Of a stretch of 54,419 nt of DNA, positions 9,639 through 54,419 are shown piece after piece; positions within the stretch are counted from its first letter, which is position 1; every line of letters begins with the position of its first letter. Position numbers and translations under genes: made by a program. Location: the IMG/VR virus record IMGVR_UViG_3300037590_000132, positions 1 to 54,419 of that record, one strand, 5' to 3'. The notes beneath the pieces were generated by a model that saw only the letters and a list, made by a program, of their open reading frames with translations, was not told the DNA's origin and did no database searches. The stretch comes from a virus (Duplodnaviria; Caudoviricetes).

Positions 9639-9649
9639 CGTCTAAAAAA

Positions 9650-9723
9650 TTGCGGAGACTGGATTTGAACCAGTGATCTCAAGGTTATGAGCCTTGCGGG
9701 ATACCAAGCTTCCCCACTCCGCC
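9650..9723 (-). tRNA. tRNA-Met(CAT), initiator-like
   Basis: GGCGGAG acceptor with a 1:72 mismatch, G11:C24 pair, CAAGG-CTCATAA-CCTTG anticodon arm, GGTTCAAATCC T arm. No encoded CCA. Confidence 0.92.
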
Positions 9724-9737
9724 ATGTGTTGTGACCG

Positions 9738-20130: not shown

Positions 20131-20589
20131 TCAGTCTTTCTTGAGGTTGCTTCGCTGGCGACCAACTTGGCTGGCGATGACTTGGACGCCCTGTTTATCC
20201 AAAGCATCAATCACTTCTGCGTTGCCAGCGTCTGGATGTTCTGAAAGGTAGTCACGAATGTGTTGGGCTTCGGATTTGGGTTTGCCACTGGACTCCTCTT
20301 CGTCGGCATCTTCTTTTTCGAGTGCTTCTTTGAATTCGGGATCGTTTTCTTTGCGGTTTTCAATCCGTTCCTCGAAATCGATCGCGATTGGATTCCCTTC
20401 ATCGTCCACCGAGTTATCGTCGGTTGTTGGCCAATCGCAGATGACGCCCTTTCGTTCAAGCTCATCTGGCATCATTCGTTCGGCGATTTCGTTGGGCCAA
20501 GCAATCGAGTGCATTTTCCGACCGCTCCGCTCAATAAAAAAACCAACTCCAATGGTTCCATCGCTTTTCTTGTACGTGTTGTGAGTCAT
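20131..20589 (-). CDS. Hypothetical protein, possible C-terminal HTH
   Basis: Coupled ORF containing IRDYLSEHPDA.NAEVIDAL. Confidence 0.6.
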   Translation of the reverse strand: MTHNTYKKSDGTIGVGFFIERSGRKMHSIAWPNEIAERMMPDELERKGVICDWPTTDDNSVDDEGNPIAIDFEERIENRKENDPEFKEALEKEDADEEESSGKPKSEAQHIRDYLSEHPDAGNAEVIDALDKQGVQVIASQVGRQRSNLKKD

Positions 20590-22082
20590 CGTCTTCGTTC
20601 TCCCATGCCGAACAGTCGGCGAGTTTGAGCACGTTGCAGTGCCGCCAGTGCCCCGAAACGTTCGGGATGCGACTTTGCGTGTGATTTGGTTGCCGGTGGG
20701 CGGGCCGCGAAGATCTTACCTTTCAGGCGATTGAACGCGCCCGAGGCTGCGTCAACTTGGTCAGCTTGCGATGATTCAGGAAACGCAACGAGCTCTTCGA
20801 TGAAGTCTGAATTCCAAGATCCACGAACCAAGTGAACGTTTCCTGCTTCAGCCTGCCCTGCCAATGGCATTGCTCTTGTGATCTTGGCTTCACCTGGAAG
20901 AGAAACGCTTCCATCCATCCGTCGCTGTTTGCCGCCAACAATATCACGCTGAACCGCGAACCTGCCAAGGTTGGTGATCATCTGGTGCATCACTTCTTTG
21001 CCGCCTGATCCACCTTCTTGTTCTGCCACAATCACGACTTCACCTTGGTACCGACGCTGGTCCAATTCCGCTGTCTGCTCAATGATGACATCGCGTTCGT
21101 GATAGCTGTATTGCCCTCGCACAACATCTTCGATGTACACCATTCCGCGTGGGTCCAGTGCCATCAGCAAACCGGCTGTAAACGATCCGGCGCCGGCCGT
21201 TGCGGCTTTGTCCCAGTATCGAACACGTAACGCATCACGAGGGGCTTCGTCGACCAAGTGGAACCAACCACGACTGAACATCAAACCTGCGATGTCCAGG
21301 AATTCACCTTCCAATTCCTGTTCGGCAAGCCGCGATGACATGTTGCCGCGAAGCGTGTCGTAAAACTCTGGAGGGTTGAATGGGTTATCGCGGCTTGTAG
21401 CGTGGATCAACTGCGTGTTTGGTTTCGGTCGATACGGTTTTCCGCCGATCCAGACGATGCCATCTACTGAGCATCCATCGGTTCCGAGAATACGCTCGTC
21501 GATCGTTTCGAACAGGACATCAAACGTCCAATTCGTTTTTCCCTTGGGTGTGAACGTTGCAAGACATGGCCCCATTCTCCCTCGCCATCGAAGTGTGGGG
21601 ATCGCGTCCAAAAACACATCCTTGTGTTGCAAGCTCGCTTCATCGATCCACAACCCTGCCTTGTTTGATCCGTGAAGCTTTTTGGGCTTTTCGCCTGATC
21701 GAAACACAACTTCCGCTTGGCCACCATCGCGAGTTCGAAACTTCACCCGCGGGTAAGGTGACAGTTTGTGATCGACATAGCATCCAAGCAGGCGAGACAC
21801 TTCCAGGAACGTTGGTAGCGTGGTTTCTGTGACGACGCCTGAGTCGGGGGAAACCGCCATCCATGGATCACCATCCTTGGCGTGCTTGCAGATGAAATGA
21901 GCACCCACACGAGTTTTGCCAGCACCGCGTCCAGCACAAAAAGCGGTCAACCAATCTTCGCTGGATAGAAAACTGGCTTGCTTGGCGGTCACTGGCACGG
22001 GGCGAACTGTCATCGCACCCATGAGGTTTTCGCCTCCGAGAATTGTGAGCAAGCAGAACGCAAGTGAACCCAAACCATTCAT
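20586..22082 (-). CDS. terL: Terminase large subunit
   Basis: Walker A AGRGAGKT, Walker B WIDEA, nuclease motifs YWDKA and DQVDA. Confidence 0.95.
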   Translation of the reverse strand: MNGLGSLAFCLLTILGGENLMGAMTVRPVPVTAKQASFLSSEDWLTAFCAGRGAGKTRVGAHFICKHAKDGDPWMAVSPDSGVVTETTLPTFLEVSRLLGCYVDHKLSPYPRVKFRTRDGGQAEVVFRSGEKPKKLHGSNKAGLWIDEASLQHKDVFLDAIPTLRWRGRMGPCLATFTPKGKTNWTFDVLFETIDERILGTDGCSVDGIVWIGGKPYRPKPNTQLIHATSRDNPFNPPEFYDTLRGNMSSRLAEQELEGEFLDIAGLMFSRGWFHLVDEAPRDALRVRYWDKAATAGAGSFTAGLLMALDPRGMVYIEDVVRGQYSYHERDVIIEQTAELDQRRYQGEVVIVAEQEGGSGGKEVMHQMITNLGRFAVQRDIVGGKQRRMDGSVSLPGEAKITRAMPLAGQAEAGNVHLVRGSWNSDFIEELVAFPESSQADQVDAASGAFNRLKGKIFAARPPATKSHAKSHPERFGALAALQRAQTRRLFGMGERRR

Positions 22083-26694: not shown

Positions 26695-27194
26695 CGCTCG
26701 GTTTCCAGTGCGGATTTGAAATCGTCGTGAGTCTCTGGCAATGGACCAGTGACCAATCGCCCGTCGTTGAGCGTCGTCAGAGATGGAGCGGCCGCCGCGT
26801 TGTCGCGGATCTTCTTCCAGATGGGTTCGGCTGTTTCAAGCTTGTCATCGACGTCCAAACGTCGGAACGCGAAGCCGGCAGCTTCGGCTGATTCATCGCT
26901 GATCGATGACGTCAAGACATTCTTTTGGCCGTCAGTCAGATCCTTTTGCCCCGCTTCGCTCTTGTCTTGTAGGATCATCGCGAACTTTCCGGCTTCATCG
27001 ATGACGATCGAATCATCATCCGGCGATGGACCGGGAATCGGCGAACAGCCTTGGTTGCTCATGAACATCCAGACGAGTGCACAAGCCAAAACGATCACAA
27101 TCCAATTGACCTTCGGTCCTGGCTGGTTCGCCGCAGCTTGATACTGCGGCCATGACGTTGGCGCCGTTGAATCGGCAAAGATATCGACGCTCAT
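26691..27194 (-). CDS. Membrane/lipoprotein-like protein
   Basis: ATGA-coupled start at 27194; WIVIVLACALVWMF...GC followed by a Pro-rich linker. Confidence 0.65.
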   Translation of the reverse strand: MSVDIFADSTAPTSWPQYQAAANQPGPKVNWIVIVLACALVWMFMSNQGCSPIPGPSPDDDSIVIDEAGKFAMILQDKSEAGQKDLTDGQKNVLTSSISDESAEAAGFAFRRLDVDDKLETAEPIWKKIRDNAAAAPSLTTLNDGRLVTGPLPETHDDFKSALETER

Positions 27195-27811
27195 TTGGTA
27201 GTGCTCGTTGAACGCGAACGGGAACGTGTGGTTTTCGCGGGTGCCTTCTCCTTGGCCGCCAACTTGGCTTGCAGTTCCGCGACCTGTTTCTCGAGCTCTT
27301 CCGGAGAAGGCGGGAACATGTCGGGATGATGATCTTCCAAGCGGATCAATCTTGATTCGAAGCCTGAAAGCAGTTCGTTGAGCTTCGCTGGGTCGATCGA
27401 CTTGGTCGTCTCCACCGGAAGCGTCACCGAAGAGGATCGTCTTCCAGACAAGCTTGCACGTGTGCCAGCCATCCAATCGCCAGCTCCAGCGAACACGGGC
27501 CCAACGTTGCCGCGGATGAACTTGACCAACGCGAAGAAGCAGATGCCAACCAAGCCGATGGCATCGAGAAGGAACGGCAGAAGGCCGTATGGTGATCCGA
27601 ATCCAGCTTCTGGAACTGGTCGGCCCATCGCGTTGAATGCGAACGCCGAAAACCATCCAGCCGAGAAGGCCTTGATCGAAACGGTAATGACGATCGCACC
27701 AACGATGATCTGTGCCGCCTTGTTGAACGAAAGGGTGTCAACCAGGCCGGGTGCTTTCATCTGGTGATCGACGGTCCCTGTTACGTTCACGGTTTGCTGA
27801 GGTTGGTTCAT
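27191..27811 (-). CDS. Two-TM membrane protein with a coiled coil
   Basis: Two hydrophobic helices and a basic tail. Confidence 0.65.
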   Translation of the reverse strand: MNQPQQTVNVTGTVDHQMKAPGLVDTLSFNKAAQIIVGAIVITVSIKAFSAGWFSAFAFNAMGRPVPEAGFGSPYGLLPFLLDAIGLVGICFFALVKFIRGNVGPVFAGAGDWMAGTRASLSGRRSSSVTLPVETTKSIDPAKLNELLSGFESRLIRLEDHHPDMFPPSPEELEKQVAELQAKLAAKEKAPAKTTRSRSRSTSTTK

Positions 27812-28074
27812 GATCCAGGTTCCCCTTCCAGGAATCCGCCACTTGGAATGGTGGCAAATCGGTTTTTGATCCAGTAAGCAATCAATTCGATTGCGAGCTT
27901 GATGGCGACACCGATCAAGATCGATCCGATGATCGAATTCATCGACGAACGAACAGCGTGTTCGGCCCTTGAGCGAGCGACCGCAGGATCGTCCGTGCTC
28001 GCGAATGCCTTTCGAGCAAGTTCACGAACTTGCAGTCTTCGTCGCGATCCAAGCAGTCGGTATGACGATTTCAA
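27808..28074 (-). CDS. Small membrane protein
   Basis: GAGGA RBS and TTG at 28074; IIGSILIGVAIKLAIELIAYW. Confidence 0.6.
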   Translation of the reverse strand: MKSSYRLLGSRRRLQVRELARKAFASTDDPAVARSRAEHAVRSSMNSIIGSILIGVAIKLAIELIAYWIKNRFATIPSGGFLEGEPGS

Positions 28075-28087
28075 AACAGTCGTCCTC

Positions 28088-28145
28088 AAACGAAAAAAGC
28101 CCCTCCGAGAATTGATCTCGAAGGGGCTCCGGTGGTCGGTTGCCG
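28088..28145 (-). terminator. Late-motif copy A plus terminator, at the head of the late region
   Basis: GGC-AA-CCG-ACCAC-CGG-AGCCCCTTCGAGA...TCTCGGAGGGGCT-TTTTTCGTTT. Confidence 0.85.
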
Positions 28146-28211
28146 CGTAATTCTTTTTGCAGACGCGAGTTCTTACAAAACTCGTTCCGTTGAGCGGATA
28201 TTACGAGCGGT

Positions 28212-28670
28212 TCATTCGATTGTCAAATCATCTCGCTTCGTTTTTGACAGCCAGGGTTTTGGGATTCCGTCAACTTCTTGTCGGCAGGTTCGGCATTTCA
28301 TCACAACGCTTCCGTCGCTGAACCAGATTTCGCTGTGCCACTGCGATCGGCAGTTTTCACAAACTGGCGACATCGCATTCCACCAAAAGAATCCCGTTTC
28401 GGTGACGACCGACGAATTCATTTCATCACGAACTGAATCTCGGTTTTCTGTTTCGCTGAATCTTTCATTCGCATCACTTGCGTTTTCGTTTGGTTGAATT
28501 TCAGCAATGACGAATTCGTTTGGCGGAGGCTGGCAATCAACGCACCTCCATTCGTTCGAATGATGCGGTCGCCAAAACTTTCCGCCAAAGCAGTCCTCGC
28601 AGAATGCTGGAAGCGAAATTTCGGTTTCAATTCGCTTTCGCGAAAACTTTTGCTTGATTGAATCAATCAT
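28212..28670 (-). CDS. Double zinc-ribbon protein
   Basis: Four CxxC motifs: CEDC, CVDC, CENC, CRTC. Confidence 0.6.
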   Translation of the reverse strand: MIDSIKQKFSRKRIETEISLPAFCEDCFGGKFWRPHHSNEWRCVDCQPPPNEFVIAEIQPNENASDANERFSETENRDSVRDEMNSSVVTETGFFWWNAMSPVCENCRSQWHSEIWFSDGSVVMKCRTCRQEVDGIPKPWLSKTKRDDLTIE

Positions 28671-28993
28671 TTCGTTTCCAAAACGTTTCGCGTCCCATTA
28701 AACCGCTGTCCCGAGAATCCGGATTTTGATAGGTCAGGCAAAACATCGTGATTTGCGGTACCAAACGGCCCTTTCGACATCCGCCCTATGGGACTCCCCA
28801 CTATGCGCATTACATTGCGCCATAGCAGCTCTATTGGGTGGCTTGTTCTCTCTTCTTCTTTTATATTTGACTGAGTTGTTGAATACATAGGGCAGATAAG
28901 ACAAGGGTGGTTTTGGCACTGGAAATCATTGGCTTTCTGGTGTCCCAAGGAGCACGAAATTGATGGGGCATCCTTGGGACTTTCATAGGGCAT

Positions 28994-31000
28994 TCAAAAT
29001 TCATTGCTTTCGGGTTGTTTCAAATGAAATGACGTTCGCAGCGGTCGAAGCAAGCGATAGAAGTACGGTCGATGAGTGCCGTTTGACACTCGAACTCGCA
29101 AATCTCCGAAAACCCGTTTCACCTCTTTGCCGAAATTTTTGTTGTTCATCGCTCGGTTTCCATGAACGATGCACCATTGACGATAAAGCGAATAAAGCGT
29201 TTCGCAATCAACGCCGCATTGCTGAGCCTCTGGTTTCTCTTTTTCAGTTTGCAGAAGGTCCGCATCCAGCCAGTCGACTTCATCCATCAAGAATTGGCGG
29301 GCTGAATTCTCTTCGATTTGGTAGTTTTCAATCGCTGCCATCGACTTTTCCGATTTCGTGAACTCGCCGTTCGATCGCAAACGATCCAGGCCGGCGATCG
29401 CCCAAAGCAACATCCCTGGAACTTCGCCCGAATCGAGCCACCATCGCCAGTTGTCCATCCCGCGAACGATTCGATCACTTGGAATTGATCGATTGAACGG
29501 AACCAAGAGCATGCGGCGCCATAGGCCTTGCGATCGGTCTTTGATCCGTGGACGGCCGTTGAATGACATCATCAGCTTTGCGGTGGGGCGAACACTGATC
29601 GGCGGCAGGTTCTTTCGGTCGAACTGCATCACATCGCCGCCGGTGAACATTTTCAGAATGCCCTCGGCCATGGAGTCAATTTCACCCACGTCGCCAGAGA
29701 TGTTGGCCGCCTTGCCGATGGTGCTGGCCAAATCGAAGCGTCCGCCAAAGTTCTCCATTGCCACATGCGACACGTTGGGGATGCCAAGCATTGCGGTCAG
29801 TCCAGCGAAATAGACGCTCTTTCCGTTTCCGCCTTCACCTTCCAGGGCAAGGAACCGCTGGTATTCGTTGGATCCGGTGAGCAGGTACCCGGCCCACTCC
29901 TGCAGCAGATCAATGCAATCCTCGTCTCCGTCCATGCAGAAATCGAGGTAATTCTCCCACTTGTCGCACTTCGCGTTGATGTCAAATCCGTATTCGAGCT
30001 TCACCGTCGAAAACCAATCTGGCGAATGGGAGATCAGCGAATGCTCAGCGTCGTTCCGGAACACGGCATCCAAGTCAAGGATTCCGTTTTCCATTGAGAT
30101 GTAGTGGCGTTCGCTCCGATCTGGCACCCACGATGGCATTTCAATTGAAGAGGAAAGCAAAGTCAGCGATTCCATCGCTCCGATCACGTTGGACACCAAT
30201 CCCCGTGTCACCTGTCGTACCTCACGAACTTCCTCGCCACGGTCAACACGCTCTCGGTATCGATTGTCGAACTCAGTTTTGATTGTCGCGGCGACCTTCG
30301 CCTTCAATTCTTGCGGTCCGATTTTTCGATACTTCCCATCACGATACCTCCACCATTCCTCACGCCAAAACCGCAGCTGACCACCGTGGTTGTCGGTGTA
30401 GTACCGAAGGTTCACCCGAGCGAGTCGATGAGGATCCTGATCCGCTTCTTCGATTTCAATATCGCTTACAGTTTCGGAATCGTCCCTTGCCTGGCTGTCC
30501 TTGTTTTCGATGCGATTGATCACATCCTTTGCCAACTGAATCACGGGGCACTTTGAGTCATCTCGTGCGTACGCCAACAACTCCTCATAGATCAAAGGCG
30601 GATCGATGTTGCGATCTAATCGTTCACCGATCCAATCGCGAATGTCCTTCCCGTGTTTCTCTTCAATCGGGTACGGCAACACGACATTGCGAACAGAAGC
30701 GGCGTGCTTTGCGATCTCGGGTGCCCAACCCCGCCAGTGATTGCCGGACGGCTTCGCTCGAACGGCTCCTTCCTGCCCAGGTGCGTCGCAATCGTGCACG
30801 ACAAAGACTTCCTTGCCTGCCATCGACTCCAGGAACCACTGCCCGTCCTGTCCGGCTGTCTCGGTCGCTCCATTGCTATTGCAAACGGCGGTGTGATCGT
30901 CAGGGGGCGAAAGAGACAGTATTGCCAACAAATCAGTGACGCCCTCGGTTTTCCAGACAACCGATGTGTCGGGCTTTACCCTTCCTACGATTCCAAGCAT
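28994..31000 (-). CDS. P4/D5-type primase-helicase, C-terminal part (TOPRIM plus SF3 helicase)
   Basis: KTEGVTD and HDCD..G..GA TOPRIM motifs; GEGGNGKS Walker A; no zinc ribbon. GGAG RBS and ATG at 31000. Confidence 0.9.
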   Translation of the reverse strand: MLGIVGRVKPDTSVVWKTEGVTDLLAILSLSPPDDHTAVCNSNGATETAGQDGQWFLESMAGKEVFVVHDCDAPGQEGAVRAKPSGNHWRGWAPEIAKHAASVRNVVLPYPIEEKHGKDIRDWIGERLDRNIDPPLIYEELLAYARDDSKCPVIQLAKDVINRIENKDSQARDDSETVSDIEIEEADQDPHRLARVNLRYYTDNHGGQLRFWREEWWRYRDGKYRKIGPQELKAKVAATIKTEFDNRYRERVDRGEEVREVRQVTRGLVSNVIGAMESLTLLSSSIEMPSWVPDRSERHYISMENGILDLDAVFRNDAEHSLISHSPDWFSTVKLEYGFDINAKCDKWENYLDFCMDGDEDCIDLLQEWAGYLLTGSNEYQRFLALEGEGGNGKSVYFAGLTAMLGIPNVSHVAMENFGGRFDLASTIGKAANISGDVGEIDSMAEGILKMFTGGDVMQFDRKNLPPISVRPTAKLMMSFNGRPRIKDRSQGLWRRMLLVPFNRSIPSDRIVRGMDNWRWWLDSGEVPGMLLWAIAGLDRLRSNGEFTKSEKSMAAIENYQIEENSARQFLMDEVDWLDADLLQTEKEKPEAQQCGVDCETLYSLYRQWCIVHGNRAMNNKNFGKEVKRVFGDLRVRVSNGTHRPYFYRLLRPLRTSFHLKQPESNEF

Positions 31001-31042
31001 TGGTTTCTCCTGCGTGGTGAAATTAAATGAACGTGATGACAT

Positions 31043-31072
31043 AAAAAAAGCCGACCCGAAAAACGGATCGGC
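31043..31072 (-). terminator. Intrinsic terminator after intI
   Basis: GCCGATCCG-TTTTT-CGGGTCGGC-T7. Confidence 0.8.
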
Positions 31073-31147
31073 AAGCGAAGATTATGAAAGCGGCACCGCT
31101 GGCACGGAAACCAGCGGCCGACCTTTTCAGATCGTCGGATTGCAGTC

Positions 31148-32158
31148 CTAGCCGCAGATCGATAGTACAGGCTGAGGCGAAGACACGGCAAGGCGATCCA
31201 TCGGGTTCGGCAAATGCTTGTCCGCAAAAACGGAAACGTGCGTGTAGATCATCGTTGTCGAAACGTCAGCGTGACCAAGAAGACGCTGAATCTCTCGGAT
31301 GTTCACTCCGTCCATCAGCATGTGCGTTGCGAAGCTATGCCGAAGTGAATGAGACGATCCTCTCTTGCAGATACCAGCTTTCTTGACAGCCTTTGTCACA
31401 TTGTCGCTGAACGTATCTTCTAAGGTTCTACCTCTTCCGATCTCATCAGTTTCGTTGCATTTCGCTATTCTGTTTGTGCAGAAAAGCCAATAGTATCGCC
31501 AGTCTGTTGTAGGCTTTTGTCCATTGCTTCCGATCTTGAAGGGTGGAATGCAACCGCCAGTTTTCGATTGAATATCACGCCGCCGATAGTTCAGTGCGAT
31601 CTTTGCTTGCTGGCGAAGCGGATCGTTCAGTGATTTTGGTATTGGAACCGTTCGGCTTTTCTTGTGCTTCGAGCACCACACTGTAAACATCTGGTTTTCT
31701 AAATCGATGTCTTTCAATCGCAGCCTGGAAACTTCGCCCACCCTCAAGCCGGAACCGTACATGATTTGAGCGGCTAGAAGATATCGACCTCGAAGGTTGC
31801 TGAAAATCCTCGAAACCTCTGAGGCACTGAACACCACTGGAACCGTTTCCGGTTTTGATTGTGTCCGTGTTGCGTTCAAACCAGTGAGCGGTTTTTCGTA
31901 GAGCTGGTTGTAAAGCCACAAGATTGCAAAGAACGCTTGTTCGTGCTTTGAAACAGAAGCCTTTTCGACGACTGCCAGGTAAGTGAGCCACGCTTCTACG
32001 TCGTTGTGATCCAACTCGCGAGGCGAAACAAGTTTTCCATCCCGGCGGTTGTATTCGCAAAATCGCTTGATGTGCTTCCAGTACGCACGTTCTGTTTTTG
32101 GCGACTTGTGCTGTTCTTTCATCTTTTCATGAACAGCTTCTCTCAGTGTTTTCGTCAT
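31148..32158 (-). CDS. intI: Integron integrase
   Basis: YGSGLRVGE, HSLRHSFATH and LLGH..VSTTMIYTHV, with an IntI-type insertion ending WRYYWLF. Adjacent to attC sites. Confidence 0.88.
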   Translation of the reverse strand: MTKTLREAVHEKMKEQHKSPKTERAYWKHIKRFCEYNRRDGKLVSPRELDHNDVEAWLTYLAVVEKASVSKHEQAFFAILWLYNQLYEKPLTGLNATRTQSKPETVPVVFSASEVSRIFSNLRGRYLLAAQIMYGSGLRVGEVSRLRLKDIDLENQMFTVWCSKHKKSRTVPIPKSLNDPLRQQAKIALNYRRRDIQSKTGGCIPPFKIGSNGQKPTTDWRYYWLFCTNRIAKCNETDEIGRGRTLEDTFSDNVTKAVKKAGICKRGSSHSLRHSFATHMLMDGVNIREIQRLLGHADVSTTMIYTHVSVFADKHLPNPMDRLAVSSPQPVLSICG

Positions 32159-32233
32159 TGTGTTCTTCCGTTGGAACCAAGCGATCGAAAGCTGCAACTA
32201 ACGATCGCATCGAAGGCATCTTACAAATTCGGA

Positions 32234-32278
32234 CTTATCCCTGGTGATGCCGAAACCGGGGATAAGAACAAGATAGGC
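32234..32278 (+). other. Candidate attI site (core GATAGGC at 32272-32278)
   Basis: Upstream of intI. GGATAAG-AACAA-GATAGGC has attI1-like spacing and its core is complementary to the R'' of attC1. Confidence 0.55.
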
Positions 32279-32298
32279 GGACGAGGTTGACATGTCCG

Positions 32299-32517
32299 TC
32301 ATGTCACTGTGTCATTTTTCGAAACATTGGTGCCTTCGCATCTGATGCACGGGACAGTGGTAATTCCACCTCCATCGTTAAATGGATACTGCCCTCTCCC
32401 ATCACACACGGCACACTTCGTTTCGGTGGTCCGCCTATCATCCGATTCTTTGGCAACCGGCTCGATCCGTCGCCGCCTATCAAACGATTGCTTTGGACTC
32501 ATTTCATTCGACTGCAT
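32299..32517 (-). CDS. Cassette 1 ORF: small CxxCxGxG zinc-finger protein
   Basis: CAVCDGRG...CIRCEGT; RBS and ATG lie inside attC1. Confidence 0.6.
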   Translation of the reverse strand: MQSNEMSPKQSFDRRRRIEPVAKESDDRRTTETKCAVCDGRGQYPFNDGGGITTVPCIRCEGTNVSKNDTVT

Positions 32518-32559
32518 TTCTTTCCCTCGTTGGATTTGCCAAAGAATCGGATGTTCCCA
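32475..32559 (+). other. attC site 1
   Basis: R'' GCCTATC, L'' CGATT[G]CTTTGG[A]C, L' GCCAAAGAATCG, R' GTTCCCA. Confidence 0.7.
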
Positions 32560-32973
32560 CTACCGAACATGCTCAATAGCTTTGCCCGGCTCACTGCTTC
32601 GCCAGTCCGGCCATTGCCGCTGTTGATTGATCGTCAGCTTGTTCGCCAAACCACTCACGATGTCGAGCGGGCAATAGTCCTCTCGGCACGCACCATCAAT
32701 CGCGAGCAATATGATGTCAATCCATTCTTCCAGCTTGCGACTCTCGGCAGCTTCTTCGATCTCTTTGCGCAAGTGATCAATTACACCATCGCTTCCACGG
32801 CGAGACGGTGGCCCGAATGTCGCGAAACTCCAATCCCGCTGTTCGATGATGTGATCGACAAGGTCAAATCTGTAGTTCCTGTGCGATACCGGTTCACCTC
32901 CCAGCGGAGCGGGAACAATGGGTTGCTCCGGAGCCTTTGGTTGATCGGCTGGTTGACTGGTTTGGGTTGTCAT
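32560..32973 (-). CDS. Cassette 2 ORF: DUF550 MazG-like dATP/dGTP pyrophosphohydrolase
   Basis: WS.ATFGP, HLRKEI.E, EWIDIILLAIDG, N..R.WPDWR...AIEHVR. Confidence 0.85.
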   Translation of the reverse strand: MTTQTSQPADQPKAPEQPIVPAPLGGEPVSHRNYRFDLVDHIIEQRDWSFATFGPPSRRGSDGVIDHLRKEIEEAAESRKLEEWIDIILLAIDGACREDYCPLDIVSGLANKLTINQQRQWPDWRSSEPGKAIEHVR

Positions 32974-33033
32974 GGCTTCACTTTCCTTTGAGGTTGTTGA
33001 TATGAATTGGCCCGGAGAACCCGAACGTTACCC
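32910..33033 (+). other. attC site 2
   Basis: CGGGAAC-AAT-GGGTT[G]CTCCGG[A]GCC ... GGCCCGGAGAACCC-GAAC-GTTACCC. Confidence 0.88.
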
Positions 33034-33040
33034 ATACGAA

Positions 33041-33754
33041 TCAGCCAATGTTGAGCAACGCGGGGTTTAACACTCCGCCACTTTCATTGGCCTCATCGCC
33101 TTCGGTTCCAATCTGCGTTTCCTTGTTGTGCCACCGCCGCAATCCTTCGCCGTGCTTCCAGCACTGAGACAGCATCGACACGGCTGCACCGTACATGAAA
33201 CCGGTGATTCCTTCGTCGTCCGCAAGGCGGCTCAATTCCTCCGCACATTCCGCGATGGTTTCGCCGCTCGCAATCCGCACCTGCATCAACCTCGCCCATT
33301 TTTCGGCGTACCTGACGCAGTAACTGCCGTATCCATCCTTGTTGGCGTCAACACACTTCTGCCAACCTTCGGCGTCGGACAATTCAATCGGCCCGGCGTT
33401 GCCTAACGCACCTTGCAAAACGAGTTCTTTCTCGCGTTGCTTCTGTTCGTATTTCTCGTTTTGGATGCGGCGACGTTCTTCGTTCTCCGCTTCGATCTTG
33501 GCATCGGATTCTTTTTCCGCTTCCGACAATTGCGGTTTGGGGTACGGCCCGATTGTTGGATTTTCGCCGAGGTATCCGCTAAGCCCACGCGACCAATCGC
33601 GGTGAATCAACTCTGGGTCTGACGCTCCTGACACAACGACCGTTACGCCGTTGAAATCAAACTGGCATTCGTCGCCATTCGATTTTGCGTCCGCAATCGC
33701 CGTTTTGATGGTGCAGGTGATTTCGTTTCCGATACTGGGGTCAAGCGTTCTCAT
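33041..33754 (-). CDS. Cassette 3 ORF: conserved phage hypothetical protein
   Basis: GAGG RBS and ATG at 33754; GITGFMYGAAV..L..CW..GE.LR.WHN...G.LNPA. Confidence 0.75.
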   Translation of the reverse strand: MRTLDPSIGNEITCTIKTAIADAKSNGDECQFDFNGVTVVVSGASDPELIHRDWSRGLSGYLGENPTIGPYPKPQLSEAEKESDAKIEAENEERRRIQNEKYEQKQREKELVLQGALGNAGPIELSDAEGWQKCVDANKDGYGSYCVRYAEKWARLMQVRIASGETIAECAEELSRLADDEGITGFMYGAAVSMLSQCWKHGEGLRRWHNKETQIGTEGDEANESGGVLNPALLNIG

Positions 33755-33766
33755 AGTGTCCTCGAT

Positions 33767-33888
33767 GGGTAACAAAGTGATGAACCGGATCGGCGGTCAT
33801 CGGGGGAAGGGTTGGTTAGTTGGTTTGGTTTGATCGTTCGTTGGGTCAATGCGGGCCACGCGCCGACCGGTTATCACAGACGTTCCAC
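33767..33888 (+). other. attC site 3
   Basis: GGGTAAC-AAA-GTGAT[G]AACCGG[A]TCGGCG ... CGCCGACCGGTTATCAC-AGAC-GTTCCAC. Confidence 0.9.
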
Positions 33889-33893
33889 GAATC

Positions 33894-34154
33894 CTATTCG
33901 CATTTGACGAAGATTCTGTGTTGTCCTGCGTGTCTCACAGTTTGCGAGATTTCGCGAATCTCACCCAGTTCGACCATGCGATCGACGCACGCAAGCATCC
34001 GCCACGAATCGCCCGTGCATGTCGATATTGCCTCATTCATTCGGACGGCACCTGCGAACTCCAATGCGTTAAAAACGTGTGCCCGGATTTTCAAAAACAT
34101 CCGTTGACCTTCATCCGTGAAGATCTCTTCGCGTTGCTTTTCGTAAACGTACAT
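33894..34154 (-). CDS. Phage hypothetical protein (winged-helix-like)
   Basis: GGGAG RBS; GDSW.MLACVDR.VELGEIREI. Confidence 0.65.
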   Translation of the reverse strand: MYVYEKQREEIFTDEGQRMFLKIRAHVFNALEFAGAVRMNEAISTCTGDSWRMLACVDRMVELGEIREISQTVRHAGQHRIFVKCE

Positions 34155-34179
34155 CTCGTGGCTCCCTGTCAATCGTTCT

Positions 34180-34545
34180 CGGTTTACTGCTGTCTCTCAA
34201 AGTGGACCGCGAAGGTTCCGCCCCCTCATAGCACTTTCCGTTGGCTCCGATCGTACGCTCGGCGGATAGCTCGGCCCTAGTTGCCGGGTTCGCACCGGCT
34301 CCCCGCTGTCGCATCAGCGGTCAAGGCTCGTTTTTGTCATATCGCCGGTCCGAGGTGACCGTCGTCGGGTTTCAATCTCTCGCCACTCCATGCCTGACGA
34401 GTGGTGTGGTCTAGCCGTACTGGCCTTGCCGCTGCAATGGTCGGTCGCGGGGTATCCCCTCACGCCACAACCAGCCAATCCACTGCGGCTCCCAAATCGC
34501 CAAGACCAGCCATGTCGGCATGGTGTGGTCCCATTCGGTTCGGAT
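34180..34545 (-). ncRNA. Candidate structured non-coding RNA
   Basis: About 400 nt without a credible ORF, containing several GC-rich hairpins including a T-loop-like GCCGG-TGCGAAC-CCGGC. Confidence 0.35.
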
Positions 34546-34569
34546 GATAAAAACAATAAACATCGACTC

Positions 34570-35136
34570 TTAAACTGCTACGCTGCTTTGTTGGACGGAT
34601 GGACGTGGCGAGTCGCCAATCTGCTTCAGTGCTGGGACAATCAATGGGGTCCAGATGTGATCCCAAAAACTCATCCACTGACCATTTGGTTCGTCGCATC
34701 TGTACTCCCAGGGTTCCATTAGGTGCGTTTGATCACACCAGCCTCGGAAATCTGTCCAGCCCCGTTGGAACTCATCAATGAACTCCCACTCCAAAGCCGC
34801 TTCTTCCTTGTCGAGTGTCCCCGTCTTGCGAAGAGAGATGATTTCGCTCTTGATGTGATTGACAGTGCGTTCGTCGCTTGGGACGCGAATGTTCCCATTC
34901 AGCATCTTCTCGCCCATATAGTCCCAATTGAGCCCAGCCAGGAACTGCGGCAGAGTCCGATCACCAATGTGACGCCAACAATAAGACCACTCCCCGTAGT
35001 CGCTGACGATGACGACTCGGCCAGTCTCCTCATCGATCAACAACCGTGCCCAACCCCATGATTTTGTGACAGCGCTGATCTCCCGCATCACGGTTTCCTT
35101 GATCGTCACTCCATCCGGTATCGTTTGCATCGCCAA
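34570..35136 (-). CDS. Phage hypothetical protein
   Basis: 188 aa Trp-rich ORF with SDYGEWSY.W and an RBS. Confidence 0.65.
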   Translation of the reverse strand: MAMQTIPDGVTIKETVMREISAVTKSWGWARLLIDEETGRVVIVSDYGEWSYCWRHIGDRTLPQFLAGLNWDYMGEKMLNGNIRVPSDERTVNHIKSEIISLRKTGTLDKEEAALEWEFIDEFQRGWTDFRGWCDQTHLMEPWEYRCDEPNGQWMSFWDHIWTPLIVPALKQIGDSPRPSVQQSSVAV

Positions 35137-35150
35137 GATTCTTTCCTTTG

Positions 35151-36077
35151 TTACGCAGATGTTTGGTATTCGATGGTGAATTCTTCGATCGCTTGTTCAC
35201 GGTTCAACGTTGGCATGATTGCCTTTGCCGTTTTCACTCGATCGACATAGGACTTGTGATCCAAGCCTTCCGCCGTGTGCCCGAGATATCGCCACGCTTC
35301 ACCGCCGTTTTTCTTGACTTCGGTGGCTCCGGTGCGGCGAAGGTGTTGCAGTGCACGATTGCAAACATCTGCATCGATTCCCGCCAGTTTTCTCGCCTTG
35401 CGGAACCAATAGTAAAATTGGCTTTCCGATTGCGGCCATCGAAGTGGTGTTTCTGCGTCGGGGTGGCCGGATTCCTGCAAGACCCTCGCAATCTGTTGAA
35501 AACCTGCCAGCGTTTGGTCCGTCACCTCGACCAAGTGCATGTTCTTGGTTTTGTGTTGCGACAACGCCGCGTTGTTTTGAACCAACCATTCAGACCGGAA
35601 ATCCCAAAGGTCCCGACGTCGCAAGCCAGTCTCATAAGCAAACCAAACAAGCGTCGCGAAATAGGTTGATCGCGGAACCCCGTTGGGCAACACACCTGGC
35701 AGTTTTCCCATTGCATCAGCGACCGTTTTCAACTCTTCGAAATCCCACGCCGCTGGATTCTTGGGTGCGATCTTGATCTTGCGAATTTTCGATCGCTTGA
35801 TCTTCTTTTTGACGTACTTCGCCAACGTGATGATGTTTTTCATCCCGTTGTCACGCGACTGATCGGACAGATCAGTGTGCAGCAATTCGTAACGCATCCA
35901 CTCGTTGATTCGCTTTGGTTTCAAATCCGCGATCGTTGATTTTCGACCGAGAAACCGATCGAAGCGGCGAACTGAACACATCAAACCAGCGACATACAAC
36001 GGCGAGAGCTCGCGGTCGCGATCGTAGTTCTGGACAACTTTCTGAAGTGTGCGATTCTTCTTGCTCAACGAACCCAA
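35151..36077 (-). CDS. Tyrosine recombinase
   Basis: YETGLR, QHKT, QHLRR, YLGH and HKSY catalytic pattern. Confidence 0.85.
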
Positions 36078-36577
36078 CCCTGCAGCACGAGTTCGCCTTC
36101 AATGTTGGGCGGTTGCCAGCCTTCTGGCTTCAAACGCTTGCCGTCTTCTCGAATTGGACCGGTCATTTTCGCGTCATTGGCATCCAGGACCGCGTTCATG
36201 ACATGAACATCGCCAACTCCCAAGCAGGACAAACATCCAAGGGTGACGACCATCACGTCACAGCAACCATCGACCGCATCAACCAGGTTGAAATCCGCCG
36301 ACACGTTGAACACGATGTCTTCTTCGCGGACTGGGTGAAGATCAACACCTCCGTCCTGATCCGGAACACGAAGGACGATCGAAACGCCCAACGCCTGGCA
36401 GGTTTCCAAGGCTTCTTCCAGAATCAACTTCGCCCGCAGAATGCGTTCGTCTTCACGCGGTTGATCTGGCCACAAGCGAACGATTTGTTTCGCTTCTCGC
36501 ATGAACCGTTCCACCCGTCGCTGGTATTCGGTTTGAACAAAGCGACGTGGTGACTGATGCTTTTCTTGGGTCGGCAC
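36065..36577 (-). CDS. MazG-like/PRA-PH NTP pyrophosphohydrolase
   Basis: [17 protein letters not shown]...REDGK.LKPEGW.PP. Confidence 0.85.
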
Positions 36578-36702
36578 AATGGAACCTCATAAAGAGAGTG
36601 TTCCGAAGCGACCGCGAACGTCTGCCAGGTGGTGAGCCTGAATGTCGGATGGTAAGTCCGACGGGTTGAACGGTTGAAAAGATAGCGACGTGTCAGTGAT
36701 TG

Positions 36703-37179
36703 TCAAGCAATCAAACGCAGGTCGCTTGCGATGATCCTCAAATCAGGAGCATCTGCTGGGTGCATCACACCGTCTTGCTGGTCACGTTGACGATCGTTCA
36801 TCCACTTGGCAATGATCCGGATCATCTCTCGTCGATCGACGACGGACGGCTCAAACTGATGGCTCAGCAGTTCCCGTGGCCGAACATCGTCGGGTGCATA
36901 CAGTGCCAACTGCAATGTTCCTGGAGCGGAAAATTCGTTCGTCGAGCCTGGGTAGAACTGACGAAACATCCGCAGCTCGACGTCCCATCCGGTCACCAGC
37001 CAACGCGAGCGTGAAGTGTACGGACGCTTCAGGAATTCCATTGGCGTCAATGGCTCCGTCACCAGATCGCGGATCTTGTGAACGATCAGGTTTCGTTCTT
37101 TTCGTGGTGCCTTGGAAATCCAGCGAACATGAGTGTCCTTGGGGTAGAACAGCGTGATTTCCTTGCCTTTTTCAAACAT
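36703..37179 (-). CDS. WYL-like domain protein
   Basis: ITLFYP...RWLVTGWD....RQFY; GAAGG RBS and ATG at 37179. Confidence 0.5.
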   Translation of the reverse strand: MFEKGKEITLFYPKDTHVRWISKAPRKERNLIVHKIRDLVTEPLTPMEFLKRPYTSRSRWLVTGWDVELRMFRQFYPGSTNEFSAPGTLQLALYAPDDVRPRELLSHQFEPSVVDRREMIRIIAKWMNDRQRDQQDGVMHPADAPDLRIIASDLRLIA

Positions 37180-37252
37180 GCTTGGCCCTTCTTTGCTAGC
37201 AAATGGATCTTGAATGAAAGAAGCATTCTGGTAGCGGCCGTGACACGTTTGG

Positions 37253-37906
37253 TCACTTGCGGGGTATTTGTTGATGCACGCCGCTTGCAAATGCCCAAGC
37301 AAGCGTTCCTACCCAGCCCAGCAGCGTCCATCCAAAAACGATATTCAAGATGCCAATTGGAATCCAATTCTGGTGCGACCGAACGTATGCGATCGAAACT
37401 GGCAGCATGTAGACAGTCGCAAGCACGAAGAAAAAGACTGGGAAAATGACAAGCAACAGTCCCGTTCTTGGAATATCCGACCATGGCGTTTCGCCTGTCA
37501 GGACCGTGAGAACAGAGCCAACGACCATGAAAGATTCGGCTGCCGCAACAATCACGAAGATGAAGTACACAACTTGCAGAAGTCGGTCATCTGGCCACTT
37601 GAGCCATGAAAGCACACCGTTATTTTCTTCGACTGAACGGCATCGATCTTCAGCGACCACCTCTACTTCGTTGTCCGGGACAACAGGTGGAGGTTCAGGT
37701 TCAGGCGAAACAGATTGAGATTCAAAAGCTTTCAGTAGGGTTTGGACTTGGCTTGCTTTTACCCACTTGCCACCAGTTTCAGCATTTTGGAACACAGTGT
37801 GCGTTTGCAACAATTCCCCATGGAGAACCATCTCGCTGAGCTCATTCAGGGATAGCGGTCCGCTTGTCTCGCCATCACCAACGCTGTAGTACCAATCATC
37901 TGCCAC
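37253..37906 (-). CDS. GYF_2 (DUF4339) plus superinfection immunity (T4 Imm-like) membrane protein
   Basis: WYY...GPLS..EL...G.L...W..A; YMLP..IA..R.H.N...I.ILN..FGWTLLGW..L.WA. Confidence 0.85.
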   Translation of the reverse strand: MADDWYYSVGDGETSGPLSLNELSEMVLHGELLQTHTVFQNAETGGKWVKASQVQTLLKAFESQSVSPEPEPPPVVPDNEVEVVAEDRCRSVEENNGVLSWLKWPDDRLLQVVYFIFVIVAAAESFMVVGSVLTVLTGETPWSDIPRTGLLLVIFPVFFFVLATVYMLPVSIAYVRSHQNWIPIGILNIVFGWTLLGWVGTLAWAFASGVHQQIPRK

Positions 37907-38516
37907 GTGTCACCGCCTCTGAGGGTGAGTCAGGCTTGGTGGCGAACCATGCAACGAAGCAAATCACGAGAAGAAAAAGGTAAATCGGAATCCAGCCAGT
38001 TGCTAAAGCGAACGAATATATTCCGCAAGCCAAAATCAACCTGTTGAAGGTATAGACGGAGTAGCCAAGAGCGTAACGACCATCGCTCAGTACTTGGGCG
38101 TCACTCATGCGGTCAATGAAAAACAAAGCAAAAGTAACTACAAAGCAGCAAATGAACGACGCGGTCAATATCAACATGGCGATCTTTGCCGGGTGCACGC
38201 CAGCAAATCGTTCGAGCCACGTGTTCACTGTGACAGTAGGTTTTCTGGGACGATCAGCAACGACAACTTCTTCGAGGTTGACAGAATGATCCACCGGCGG
38301 AGGACCATCAACAGGCAGCGGCGATTGTGTTTCAAACACGTTCAGGATCTTTTTGATCCTTTCCGCCCGAACCCATTTTCCATGGGTTTCAACGGAATGA
38401 AAGACAACGTGCGATCGCGAAAGACTGCCAGATTCCGCCATGTTCGCGAGCTCGTCCAGCGACAGCGGCCCATTGGTTTCGCCATCGCCGACACTGTAGT
38501 ACCAACTTGCGGCCAC
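37896..38516 (-). CDS. GYF_2 (DUF4339) membrane protein
   Basis: Paralogous N-terminus WYYSVGDGET.GPLSL.EL, followed by TM helices. Confidence 0.8.
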   Translation of the reverse strand: MAASWYYSVGDGETNGPLSLDELANMAESGSLSRSHVVFHSVETHGKWVRAERIKKILNVFETQSPLPVDGPPPVDHSVNLEEVVVADRPRKPTVTVNTWLERFAGVHPAKIAMLILTASFICCFVVTFALFFIDRMSDAQVLSDGRYALGYSVYTFNRLILACGIYSFALATGWIPIYLFLLVICFVAWFATKPDSPSEAVTRGR

Positions 38517-38519
38517 GTG

Positions 38520-38993
38520 TCACCCCTGCTTGCGTTTGCGGCTCGCTGTCGAGCGATTGCCCGCAGCCTTTGAACGAGTCGACTTCTTCCGTGATGCTGA
38601 TTCTACGCCCGATTCCGTGCTCTGTCGTCGTCTTTCACTGTCTTCGTCGATCTGAGCAACTTGGACACCCGGGATATCTGGAAGAGGCTTCTTTTTAGCG
38701 TGACCACCGTTGCGGATGAATTCATCATTTTCGTCAAGTTGCTGGCCAGGTGGGAAAACAATTCCACGGCGAGCGTTTGTAACGGAAACCTTCAGTTTTG
38801 GCTGAAAAGATGCGAGACCCTTCATCGCTTTATCAAACATGCTTTTGTTGAATGCAGAAAGCACGAGACCAGATTTCTCTTCCCAATCGATGGCGTCATC
38901 TACCGATGAAAGTGCTTCCACGAGCAAATCTCGCATCTTTTGAAGCTCACCGAGTGAGTATTCGTTCGTAACTGCTGGGTCGCGGCGTTTCAT
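38520..38993 (-). CDS. Hypothetical protein in the repressor position
   Basis: First gene of the leftward arm; no recognisable HTH or S24 domain. Confidence 0.55.
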   Translation of the reverse strand: MKRRDPAVTNEYSLGELQKMRDLLVEALSSVDDAIDWEEKSGLVLSAFNKSMFDKAMKGLASFQPKLKVSVTNARRGIVFPPGQQLDENDEFIRNGGHAKKKPLPDIPGVQVAQIDEDSERRRQSTESGVESASRKKSTRSKAAGNRSTASRKRKQG

Positions 38994-39174
38994 TCAGAAA
39001 GCCTAACCGCACGACCGCACGCATTCAAGCTAAATCTGGTTTTTTTAAGGCTAGTCCAGGAAAGCACTTGCGTTCGACGTGAGCCAAAAAAGGCTAAATC
39101 AAGCTTGATTTAGCCTAGATGGAGCCGTAGATTTCCGCACGTCGTCACACAAACACGACCGCACGGAAAAACGG
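38994..39174. promoter_or_regulatory. Divergent control region with an operator-like palindrome
   Basis: Perfect 26-bp palindrome AGGCTAAATCAAGCTTGATTTAGCCT at 39091-39116; direct repeat CACGACCGCACG at 39010 and 39154. Confidence 0.7.
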
Positions 39175-42567: not shown

Positions 42568-42640
42568 CGGCCACTAGCTCAATTGGTAGAGCGTTCGTTT
42601 TTGCCGGCGAAAGATGTTGTTTCAAAAGCAACGTGGCCGA
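42568..42640 (+). tRNA. tRNA-like element/pseudo-tRNA with an 8-nt anticodon loop
   Basis: CGGCCAC/GTGGCCG acceptor, TAGCTCAATTGGTAGAGC D arm, loop TTTTGCCG, T arm GTTGT-TTCAAAA-GCAAC. Confidence 0.7.
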
Positions 42641-53762: not shown

Positions 53763-54130
53763 AGTTTTCGGAATGCAATCACGATGATCCAAGAGCGGAT
53801 CCCAAGCGGCGACAGTTGGTTTGCGAAAAATGTGGTGCGACGCTGCCCGACGGAAAATTCAAATGGACACCACCTCCGGTGAAGGCCAACGTGTTCGATG
53901 TGCCAACAAAACCTGATCCGGTCAATCATCCGTCGCACTACACCTCTCATCCGTCCGGCATCGAAGCCATCCAGGTGTGCGAGCACTTCCCGTTTTCGAT
54001 CGGCAACGTCATCAAATACCTCTGGCGATCAGGACTCAAAGGAAACGCCATTGAAGACCTGAAAAAAGCCAGGTGGTACCTGGATCGAGAAATCACCAGG
54101 CGAGAACAGGAGGTGAAGAATGGCGACTGA
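53759..54130 (+). CDS. DUF3310 domain protein
   Basis: DPVNHPSHY, GNVIKYLWR, EDLKKARWYL. Confidence 0.9.
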   Translation: MKFSECNHDDPRADPKRRQLVCEKCGATLPDGKFKWTPPPVKANVFDVPTKPDPVNHPSHYTSHPSGIEAIQVCEHFPFSIGNVIKYLWRSGLKGNAIEDLKKARWYLDREITRREQEVKNGD

Positions 54131-54419
54131 ACTTCTCACCTTGGACGAAGCTGGAAAACGTCTTGGAATCAGTGCCGAAAGTGTTCGGCGATTGTGCAAG
54201 TCCGAAAAGTTGAAACACATTCGGCTCGGGCCTCGCAATTGGTGGTACCGAACAACGGAAGCCTGGATCGAAGAATTCATTCAGGCGAGCGCGGTCGGTG
54301 GTGATCTGGCAAGCCAACGAAAAGGAAAACCAGCCAAACCGAGTCGCTCTCGCCGAGCGACTGTCCCGCCATCCGATGAGACTTTCCGAGAACAGCTAAT
54401 CCGTCTTCGGAGCAGTTGA
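54120..54419 (+). CDS. Excisionase-like HTH_17 DNA-binding protein
   Basis: LLTLDEA..RLGIS...VRRL...L..IRLG...YR. Confidence 0.8.
   Translation: MATELLTLDEAGKRLGISAESVRRLCKSEKLKHIRLGPRNWWYRTTEAWIEEFIQASAVGGDLASQRKGKPAKPSRSRRATVPPSDETFREQLIRLRSS

Follow-up and report, generated by a model that had tools for sequence, protein, structure and literature searches.

A probable integron inside a phage genome, with its cassette genes antisense to their attC sites

The virus record IMGVR_UViG_3300037590_000132, taken whole, has 54,419 bases; it is classified as a provirus, its completeness is estimated at 100, and its full length is called the window in what follows. Between 31 and 34 kb, this genome carries what is very probably a true integron inside a phage: an integron integrase gene (intI) on the minus strand, a presumed attI site next to it, and three gene cassettes bounded by attC sites on the plus strand, each cassette holding a single minus-strand open reading frame (ORF). 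The genes and sites of the locus are as follows.

31050-31072, minus strand: intrinsic terminator, a 9-pair stem (7 G-C pairs) and a T7 tract
31148-32158, minus strand: intI, integron integrase of 336 amino acids, recognized from TIGR02249, the PDB structure 2A3V and conserved residues
32159-32272, plus strand: attI region, placed from the complementarity of the cassette 1 start and from the end of similarity in a contig of public run X8
32273-32553, plus strand: cassette 1, 281 bp, with ORF1
32299-32517, minus strand: ORF1, zinc-finger protein of 72 amino acids with two CxxC pairs, matching no family above threshold
32473-32559, plus strand: attC1, non-canonical, called from geometry and R'' complementarity
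32554-33027, plus strand: cassette 2, 474 bp, with ORF2
32560-32973, minus strand: ORF2, DUF550-type dATP/dGTP pyrophosphohydrolase of 137 amino acids
32910-33033, plus strand: attC2, called from a covariance model and strict geometry
33028-33882, plus strand: cassette 3, 855 bp, with ORF3
33041-33754, minus strand: ORF3, protein of 237 amino acids with a C-terminal domain of the Tad4 family (Thoeris inhibitor)
33767-33888, plus strand: attC3, canonical, the last site of the array

The intI frame matches the NCBIfam model TIGR02249 ("integron integrase") at 283.6 bits against a cut-off of 265, in a single stretch covering positions 4-315 of 315, and is matched much more weakly by the Xer models (132.7 bits for XerC and 129.8 bits for XerD); with the class 1-type equivalog PRK15417 it reaches 187.7 bits, under that model's cut-off of 435. 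Among solved structures its best match is 2A3V, the integron integrase IntI4 of Vibrio cholerae (E 4.5e-47, residues 8-322 aligned to 8-319). This alignment is unbroken across the region that is present in integron integrases and absent from Xer proteins, and the Xer structures themselves align to the protein over only about 60 C-terminal residues. The model score and the end-to-end structural alignment thus bear out the IntI-type integrase proposed by the first-pass annotation, which had been made from the sequence alone. Six residues (R152, K177, H283, R286, H309 and Y318) are invariant among the query and its 16 closest relatives (17 sequences), and we take them to be the family's catalytic R-K-H-R-H-Y set. 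The open frame reaches back to a TTG at 32197 (31148-32197, minus strand), but the closest relatives begin at a methionine matching the ATG at 32158, so that the gene most likely spans 31148-32158.

The nearest database proteins are 97%, 65% and then 44-50% identical to this IntI, and those named by their source are called integron integrase. As a single query the protein gave no match in viral contigs. The alignment of 17 sequences found 468 relatives there, the best 80 of the 468 all being at most 39% identical; against metagenome contigs the top identity was again 39% among the matches listed, and against genome contigs the strongest E-value among the matches listed belonged to a Planctomycetota metagenome-assembled genome, at 37% identity. 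A three-sequence alignment gave 39 pattern matches in genome contigs, none of which was confirmed.

Sites of the attC kind were sought with a geometric pattern allowing zero mismatches (AAC, 4-6 nt, 3 bp, one unpaired base, 6 bp, a loop, the complementary 6 + 3 bp, 5-7 nt and GTT). In 160 loci of IntI relatives (1.58 Mb) this pattern is strongly tied to integrons, 98 of its 111 matches lying upstream of intI on the opposite strand and 13 everywhere else. The spacers of these 98 control sites measure 5 and 6 nt in 64 cases and 5 and 5 nt in 23; the unpaired base of the top strand is a C in 72, a G in 18, an A in 5 and a T in 3; and a second unpaired base, an A after the 6-bp stem, is found in 51, the second bulge being unclear or absent in 47. 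Over both strands of the window the pattern occurs only from the AAC at 32914 to the GTT at 33029 and from the AAC at 33771 to the GTT at 33884, which are attC2 and attC3, each time with spacers of 5 and 6 and an unpaired G; the random expectation, from 20 first-order random versions of the window, is a mean of 0.2 matches. All three proposed sites have the same two unpaired bases, as the first-pass annotation had noticed: a G 8 nt past the core, then an A after the next 6-bp stem. Given the frequencies of the G and A bulges among the control sites, we regard them as a normal minority type.

Among the viral relatives of IntI, at least 12 of 80 fetched IMG/VR loci (the best 80 of 468) have at least two strict attC matches beside intI, and one of them (locus L064) has 17; these integrons may lie within phages or may stem from wrongly drawn provirus boundaries.

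A covariance model, R1, was built from 37 aligned control attC sites of unrelated integrons, with the R-box and L-box pairs as structure and no sequence from the window, and was run without filters over both strands of the complete window. Its top match is attC3 (33767-33888, plus strand; 37.9 bits, E 2.7e-7) and its second is attC2 (32910-33033, plus strand; 19.4 bits, E 0.012), the third-best score being noise (11.1 bits, E 1.5). The covariance-model check that the first-pass annotation had proposed thus returned these two sites as the best in the window, at coordinates that agree to the base with those given before. When R1 was applied to 80 further genome loci outside its training set, 89 of its 90 matches of at least 20 bits fell in one of two places: on the strand opposite to intI and upstream of it or, in five loci, on the strand of intI and downstream of it. 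Among 81,653 bases from 10 unrelated viral loci, nothing matched R1 at E <= 1. The array of the window is placed as in the controls, beside the 5' end of intI and on the opposite strand (32910-33888 on the plus strand against 31148-32158 on the minus strand). Rightward of 33888, neither the scanner nor R1 found any attC-like match. As for the five loci with a same-strand downstream array (L183, L188, L190, L199 and L223, from Acidobacteriota, Thermoanaerobaculia and Planctomycetia), we take them to show the known "inverted integrase" arrangement.

Two other approaches to the sites were set aside. The loops of the three window sites are so unequal in length that MAFFT misaligned them, and no model was therefore made from the window's own sites. 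Bottom-strand folding, also proposed in the first-pass annotation, gave no energy signal when each site was folded as single-stranded DNA (z -0.2 to -0.7, both strands alike); since long variable loops swamp the arms, free energy was dropped as a test and geometry and the covariance model were used.

The site called attC1 has the R'' CCGCCTATC with an ATC core, followed by 5 nt, 3 bp, the unpaired G, 6 bp and the A; its 3' arm has 6 + 3 bp, 5 nt and a GTT at 32553-32555, with the crossover between G and TT (32553 and 32554). Its start had earlier been set at 32475, and the R'' is now placed from 32473. The geometric scanner matches it once an ATC core is given (32479-32555, geometry 5,G,5), and the ATC-core pattern alone has a background of 19 matches per 4.63 million strand-bases, that is about 0.45 expected per window against 3 seen. 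What led us to call this a non-canonical attC is the 281-bp slot that it closes between attI and cassette 2, along with its lying on the right strand and the 9-nt complementarity of its R'' with the cassette start.

A bulge-free second copy of the left arm of attC1 is present 42 nt further left (32429-32456, plus strand), within ORF1, where it forms an in-frame 42-nt repeat. This copy is perfectly complementary to the right arm of attC1 together with the start of cassette 1 (18 + 11 nt).

The crossover made by IntI falls between the G and the TT of R', so that an arrayed cassette begins with what was the end of its own R' before insertion, a stretch able to pair with its own R''. This was found for the three cassettes. 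The start of cassette 1, GATAGGCGG (32272-32280), is complementary to the R'' of attC1 at 9 of 9 positions, its start being GAT and not GTT; cassette 2 is complementary to its own R'' at 7 of 8 positions and cassette 3 at 9 of 9. The claim of the first-pass annotation that each cassette start carries this footprint of an integrated circle holds on these counts. For comparison, the four bases that follow GTT at the cassette start were scored in the control arrays: they agree fully with the R'' of their own cassette in 47 of 60 cases, and those of the R' now following the site do so in 12 of 60; on the same four-base measure the cassettes of the window score 4/4, 3/4 and 4/4. The cassette limits listed above follow from this complementarity, with crossovers between G and TT at 33027 and 33028 in attC2 and at 33882 and 33883 in attC3. 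The attI crossover was likewise placed from R'' complementarity and is predicted after G32272, the core being G-ATAGGC; this junction (32272 and 32273) coincides with the point where similarity ends in a relative's contig from run X8.

Within the presumed attI, between ORF1 and intI, there is a hairpin with a 12-bp stem (32234-32266), in a stretch that folds with z = -2.7. This hairpin, of which the run X8 relative has a copy with one base deleted and one inserted, may serve as an attenuator ahead of intI or as a site for protein binding.

Relatives of the locus were looked for in the assembled contigs of four public runs, mapped to positions 27000-39000 at a likeness of at least 85%. From run X8, a contig of 4283 nt follows the window over 31089-31786 (22 differences) and over 31869-32272 (19 differences and 2 gaps), at about 95-97% identity; its match stops at 32272, the G of the attI core, and a further 407 letters are found nowhere on the mapped stretch. 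Two other contigs of that run, of 16,357 and 256 nt, resemble the window in attC3 alone (33770-33884/5). The match of three contigs from run X6 is confined to cassette 3 and its attC (33025-33885), with differences at 1/118, 0/60, 2/187 and 16/414 bases. To the left, these contigs bear no likeness to the window, and this flank closes with a motif that looks like the attC3 right arm; to the right, past 33885, they are loosely like the window, for which reason everything from 33883 onward is taken as phage backbone. In run X5 the same phage appears at 100% as small pieces, and run X7 has a few identical pieces, neither of which adds to the comparison. Stretches lacking cover in X6, X7 and X8 were not counted as evidence, and the record itself may stem from runs X1-X4. 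The similarity of these relatives thus starts or stops at three of the four predicted crossovers, which suggests cassette turnover, and on the strength of these junctions it seems rather probable that cassettes would have been exchanged recently. The first-pass annotation had seen in the locus a gene-shuffling platform driven by a phage promoter; the divergence of relatives exactly at predicted crossovers supports the shuffling, while present activity and the phage promoter stay inferences, IntI being presumably active at present.

In the X8 relative, a single loose end of 30 letters at 31086 and a match of 57 nt that stops at 30818 are thin evidence suggesting that the start of a primase gene may stand beside intI there as it does here. 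Its intI-attI block (31089-32272) is about 95-97% identical to the window, the primase region mostly falls under 85%, and 27000-27811 is about 92% identical, so that the integron platform is either more conserved than the phage backbone or was recently exchanged. The primase of the window has one relative only among viral contigs, at 22% identity. A mirror model, in which the minus strand would be the top strand of attC and the crossover would fall in the left arm, was ruled out, as R1 matches the plus strand only, the unpaired bases are in the left arm of the plus strand, and the X6 contigs begin at 33025 and not near 32916.

Among the cargo, ORF2 and ORF3 have matches in phage families. ORF2 scores 64.1 bits with PF04447 (cut-off 23) and belongs with phrog_4826 (E 1.7e-34), no relative of it being confirmed in viral contigs. 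ORF3, which the first-pass annotation had left as a hypothetical gene, carries a Tad4 domain: it scores 102.3 bits with PF25186 (cut-off 25; E 2.4e-29), positions 3-105 of the 113 in the profile being aligned to residues 132-231 of a frame of 244 amino acids, and it also matches phrog_9822 (E 1.2e-34). Its N-terminal 125 or so residues match no known family, and it most likely starts at the ATG at 33754, with a GAGGA just before the R'' of attC3. For ORF1, the family search gave only sub-threshold matches to Anti-TRAP and DnaJ CXXCXGXG and no PHROG family, so that the phage-type cargo of the first-pass annotation is backed by family matches for ORF2 and ORF3. According to the part of PMC13728456 available, the phage protein Tad4 co-purifies with ThsB, the TIR protein of Thoeris, and one of its loops is predicted to block the ThsB active site; Tad4 is mentioned also in the available part of 10.1101/2025.06.06.658234. 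From the domain match we infer that ORF3 would have an anti-Thoeris function.

Relatives of ORF3 (38-64% identity) are found in 10 other viral contigs, where no attC match and, within 4 kb, no neighbour gene in common with this phage was found. ORF3 therefore looks like an ordinary, widespread phage accessory gene that has turned into a cassette here. Its Tad4-domain part contains an 11-nt direct repeat spaced 66 nt apart (33143-33219), and the cassette 3 relative of run X6 is without exactly those 66 nt (22 codons, in frame).

The matches of R1 and the position of the bulges put the top strand of attC on the plus strand, and all three minus-strand genes are therefore antisense to attC. They are also co-directional with intI, so that the reversal described in the first-pass annotation applies to the entire array; the plus strand of the array has no supported gene. 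The ATG and a Shine-Dalgarno-like motif of both ORF1 and ORF2 are inside the loops of attC1 and attC2, respectively, with the first codons crossing the left arms. When cassettes of the control arrays were sorted by a crude longest-ORF measure, 24 came out as forward and 8 as reversed; 26 were ambiguous and 1 had no ORF of 50 amino acids. In no control locus was the entire array reversed.

In the classical model, cassette genes are co-oriented with the top strand of attC and are read from a promoter, Pc, at the intI/attI end. The locus departs from this layout, its three genes being on the minus strand and the plus strand having no promoter-like site in 30900-36200. The terminator at 31050-31072 (minus strand) comes directly after the intI stop and before the primase gene and is the strongest terminator-like site of the same stretch, and every gene from about 39 kb leftward to intI is on the minus strand. 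On this gene order, the cassettes and intI would presumably form the tail of a leftward transcription unit, and an upstream phage promoter would be expected to transcribe the cassettes.

The phage setting of the locus is given by the following genes.

16235-17782, minus strand: portal-like protein (phrog_113, E 2.4e-32)
20586-22082, minus strand: terminase large subunit (phrog_979, E 5e-44)
28994-31042, minus strand: P4-family primase (TIGR01613, 178.5 bits against a cut-off of 108.7)
35151-36077, minus strand: second tyrosine-recombinase-like gene, 308 amino acids (Pfam match sub-threshold, 19.3 bits against 27.1)

Structural and packaging genes, together with the P4-family primase gene, occupy the minus strand from about 1 to 31 kb, and replication genes (exonuclease, two helicases, sliding clamp and the thymidylate synthase ThyA) occupy the plus strand from about 39.9 kb rightward. 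Small accessory genes are strung on the minus strand between the packaging block and the replication block, among them one with a superinfection-immunity domain and one that is MazG-like (phrog_671, with a weak match to PF01503). The integron is at the left end of this accessory string, adjoining the primase gene, and since phage genes flank it on both sides (31-34 kb of 54 kb), it is placed inside the phage and not at an edge of the record. The protein encoded at 35151-36077 shows, by eye, an R..K..HxxR..H..Y pattern and is possibly the lysogeny integrase of the phage.

Some features of the record lie apart from the integron. The last plus-strand frame (54120-54419) exits the right end after exactly 100 codons, and frame 1 is open over 1-648 on the same strand, so that the two would fuse in frame were the record circular or permuted; a long minus-strand frame (1-2157) also exits the left end. 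ARAGORN found a tRNA-like gene with a four-base anticodon (ttgc) at 42568-42640 (plus strand) and a normal tRNA-Met at 9649-9724 (minus strand).

Taken together, these observations are best explained, and we think this explanation likely, by a genuine integron resident in a phage, with classical recombination geometry, inverted expression and phage-type cargo. The three cassettes would have been inserted one at a time, as circles, at attI. Their recombination would be classical, with the top strand of attC pointing away from intI, the crossover between the G and the TT of R', and the unpaired bases in the R''-L'' arm. Their expression would be inverted, the three cassette genes and intI ending a leftward early and accessory string that would stop at the terminator before the primase gene. 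Such an integron would let the phage gain, lose and reorder small accessory and counter-defence genes; for the more specific idea that the element serves to shuffle counter-defence genes, the balance between yes and no seems to us about even. Presumably only cassettes with their gene antisense to attC are useful to the phage, and this would explain the reversal of all three.

Several points weigh against this explanation. Of the three attC sites first annotated, attC2 and attC3 pass both R1 and the strict geometry, but attC1 is non-canonical and went undetected by R1, with best local scores under 3 bits. The AAC/GTT core of attC sites is nearly invariant, and in attC1 it is replaced by ATC/GAT, so that cassette 1 may be immobile now. 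Four scans of sequence collections, started from IntI, gave no close relative among the matches listed. The turnover of cassettes rests on short contigs from two runs at a likeness of at least 85%, and the contigs mark only where similarity ends. Reversed cassettes are a minority and not rare in ordinary arrays (8 against 24), which leaves the three-of-three reversal suggestive and not decisive. Finally, no promoter was identified, the sigma-70 scan of 30900-36200 giving one site against a mean of 3.1 in shuffled sequence.

The degenerate attC1, with its ATC core unseen by R1, could also be understood if the integron had been captured once and were now fixed, with cassettes that no longer move and an IntI that is kept for another role or is decaying. 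The duplicated bulge-free arm inside ORF1 would fit such a fossil, as would the attC loops holding the ribosome-binding site and start codon of two genes that read through the arms, which places the sites under coding constraint, and the evidence for rearrangement comes from partial contigs. We nevertheless hold this to be unlikely, for IntI is intact with all conserved catalytic-type residues and has a 97% identical relative elsewhere, attC3 scores like good chromosomal sites, and contigs of two other runs lose their resemblance exactly at 32272 and at 33025/33885. It is very improbable that the locus is a piece of a host chromosomal integron, carried along by imprecise prophage excision or included through a wrong provirus boundary, as in Vibrio anguillarum phages. 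Captures of this kind are given as the source of complete integrons in Vibrio phages in the available part of a survey of phage genomes (PMC9892861), the present record is classed as a provirus, and many IntI matches in the 80 IMG/VR loci (the best 80 of 468) are at contig ends. Here, however, the integron is well inside the genome with phage genes on either side; two of its three cargo genes match phage families, one having relatives in 10 other viral contigs; its cassette genes are oriented with the phage gene string; and the diverged X8 relative appears to keep the primase start beside intI (the 30-letter loose end and the 57-nt match).

Tyrosine recombinases are the usual phage integrases, and a Vibrio prophage in the same part of that survey has its excision points in two attC sites, which brings up the idea that IntI is the lysogeny integrase, the attC and attI sites acting as attP and the whole phage docking into a host integron. 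This we consider highly improbable: the three sites bound single small genes with their own circle footprints, which one attP would not do, no attC-like match is present near the ends of the record, and the second tyrosine-recombinase-like gene (35151-36077), in spite of its sub-threshold Pfam match, could serve lysogeny.

Integrons were described as rare in phages in the first-pass annotation, and this agrees with the survey by Qi, Rajabal, Ghaly, Tetu and Gillings (2023; PMC9892861), which, in the part available, reports 3 complete integrons, 1 In0 (an integrase without cassettes) and 17 CALINs (attC clusters without integrase) among 10,705 phage genomes screened. The phage integrons printed there are Vibrio host-chromosomal fragments, class 1 integrons on a P1 phage and an inactive Shewanella prophage, with host-type cargo. 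Like them, the present locus combines an IntI gene with an attI and with cassettes bounded by attC, all carried by a phage or prophage; unlike the cases described in that part of the survey, it lies within the early gene string, two of its three genes belong to phage families (one of them anti-defence) and all are antisense to attC. It shares with the phage CALINs of the same source the presence of attC-bounded cassettes in a phage, but these have no integrase and would need a host enzyme, whereas this phage encodes its own IntI beside attI. Complete phage integrons are therefore already in print, and this layout and cargo were not found there. In the literature seen, neither anti-defence cassettes nor complete reversal of the array was found reported for a phage integron, and the supplementary tables of PMC9892861 may hold orientation data.

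The likeness to other integrons is close at the level of recombination. As in the mobile class 1 integrons and the sedentary chromosomal integrons (Vibrio cholerae), IntI has the integron-specific region and intI is divergent from the top strand of attC, and as in classical integrons the sites have R''-L''-L'-R' boxes, two unpaired bases at standard spacing, a crossover between G and TT, and cassette starts complementary to their own R''. The locus differs from classical integrons in that no cassette is readable from a Pc at the intI end, the genes facing intI and presumably being read from the far end, in its first core (GAT/ATC), and in the first unpaired base, a G on the top strand. Genes antisense to attC and expressed independently of Pc are also known from the reverse-oriented cassettes of chromosomal integrons, for instance those for toxin-antitoxin systems, in the available part of PMC13108822, and that of PMC9892861 mentions a toxin-antitoxin cassette with its own promoter. 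Those cassettes are single exceptions among forward ones, however, whereas the array of this phage is reversed throughout and runs with the transcription of its carrier.

Bacterial integrons stockpile anti-phage defence genes as cassettes, according to the available parts of two reports (10.1101/2024.07.02.601686; 10.1101/2024.07.02.601719). The present locus suggests that the phage side of this arms race uses the same machine, with an integrase and a docking site of its own and one cassette gene of an anti-Thoeris family. More fundamentally, a fully reversed array would mean that the recombination module of the integron is separable from its Pc expression module and can be plugged into the operon of a carrier. 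With one enzyme, one attI and three sites, this is a small and complete locus that is directly amenable to tests of excision, capture and orientation rules; it also provides a search image for viral metagenomes, namely a bona fide IntI in a phage together with genes antisense to attC. We propose tentatively, and with rather less than even confidence, that an integron lineage has moved into phages as a phage tool, with its own IntI, a dedicated pool of "backward" cassettes and counter-defence genes in circulation. If this were true, IntI would be the last gene of an early operon and would be switched on by infection or induction, not by the host SOS response, and the "backward" cassettes would have their gene antisense to attC and their translation signals in the attC loop. 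Genes for counter-defence and nucleotide metabolism would then pass between co-infecting phages, mirroring the defence-gene cassettes of bacteria.

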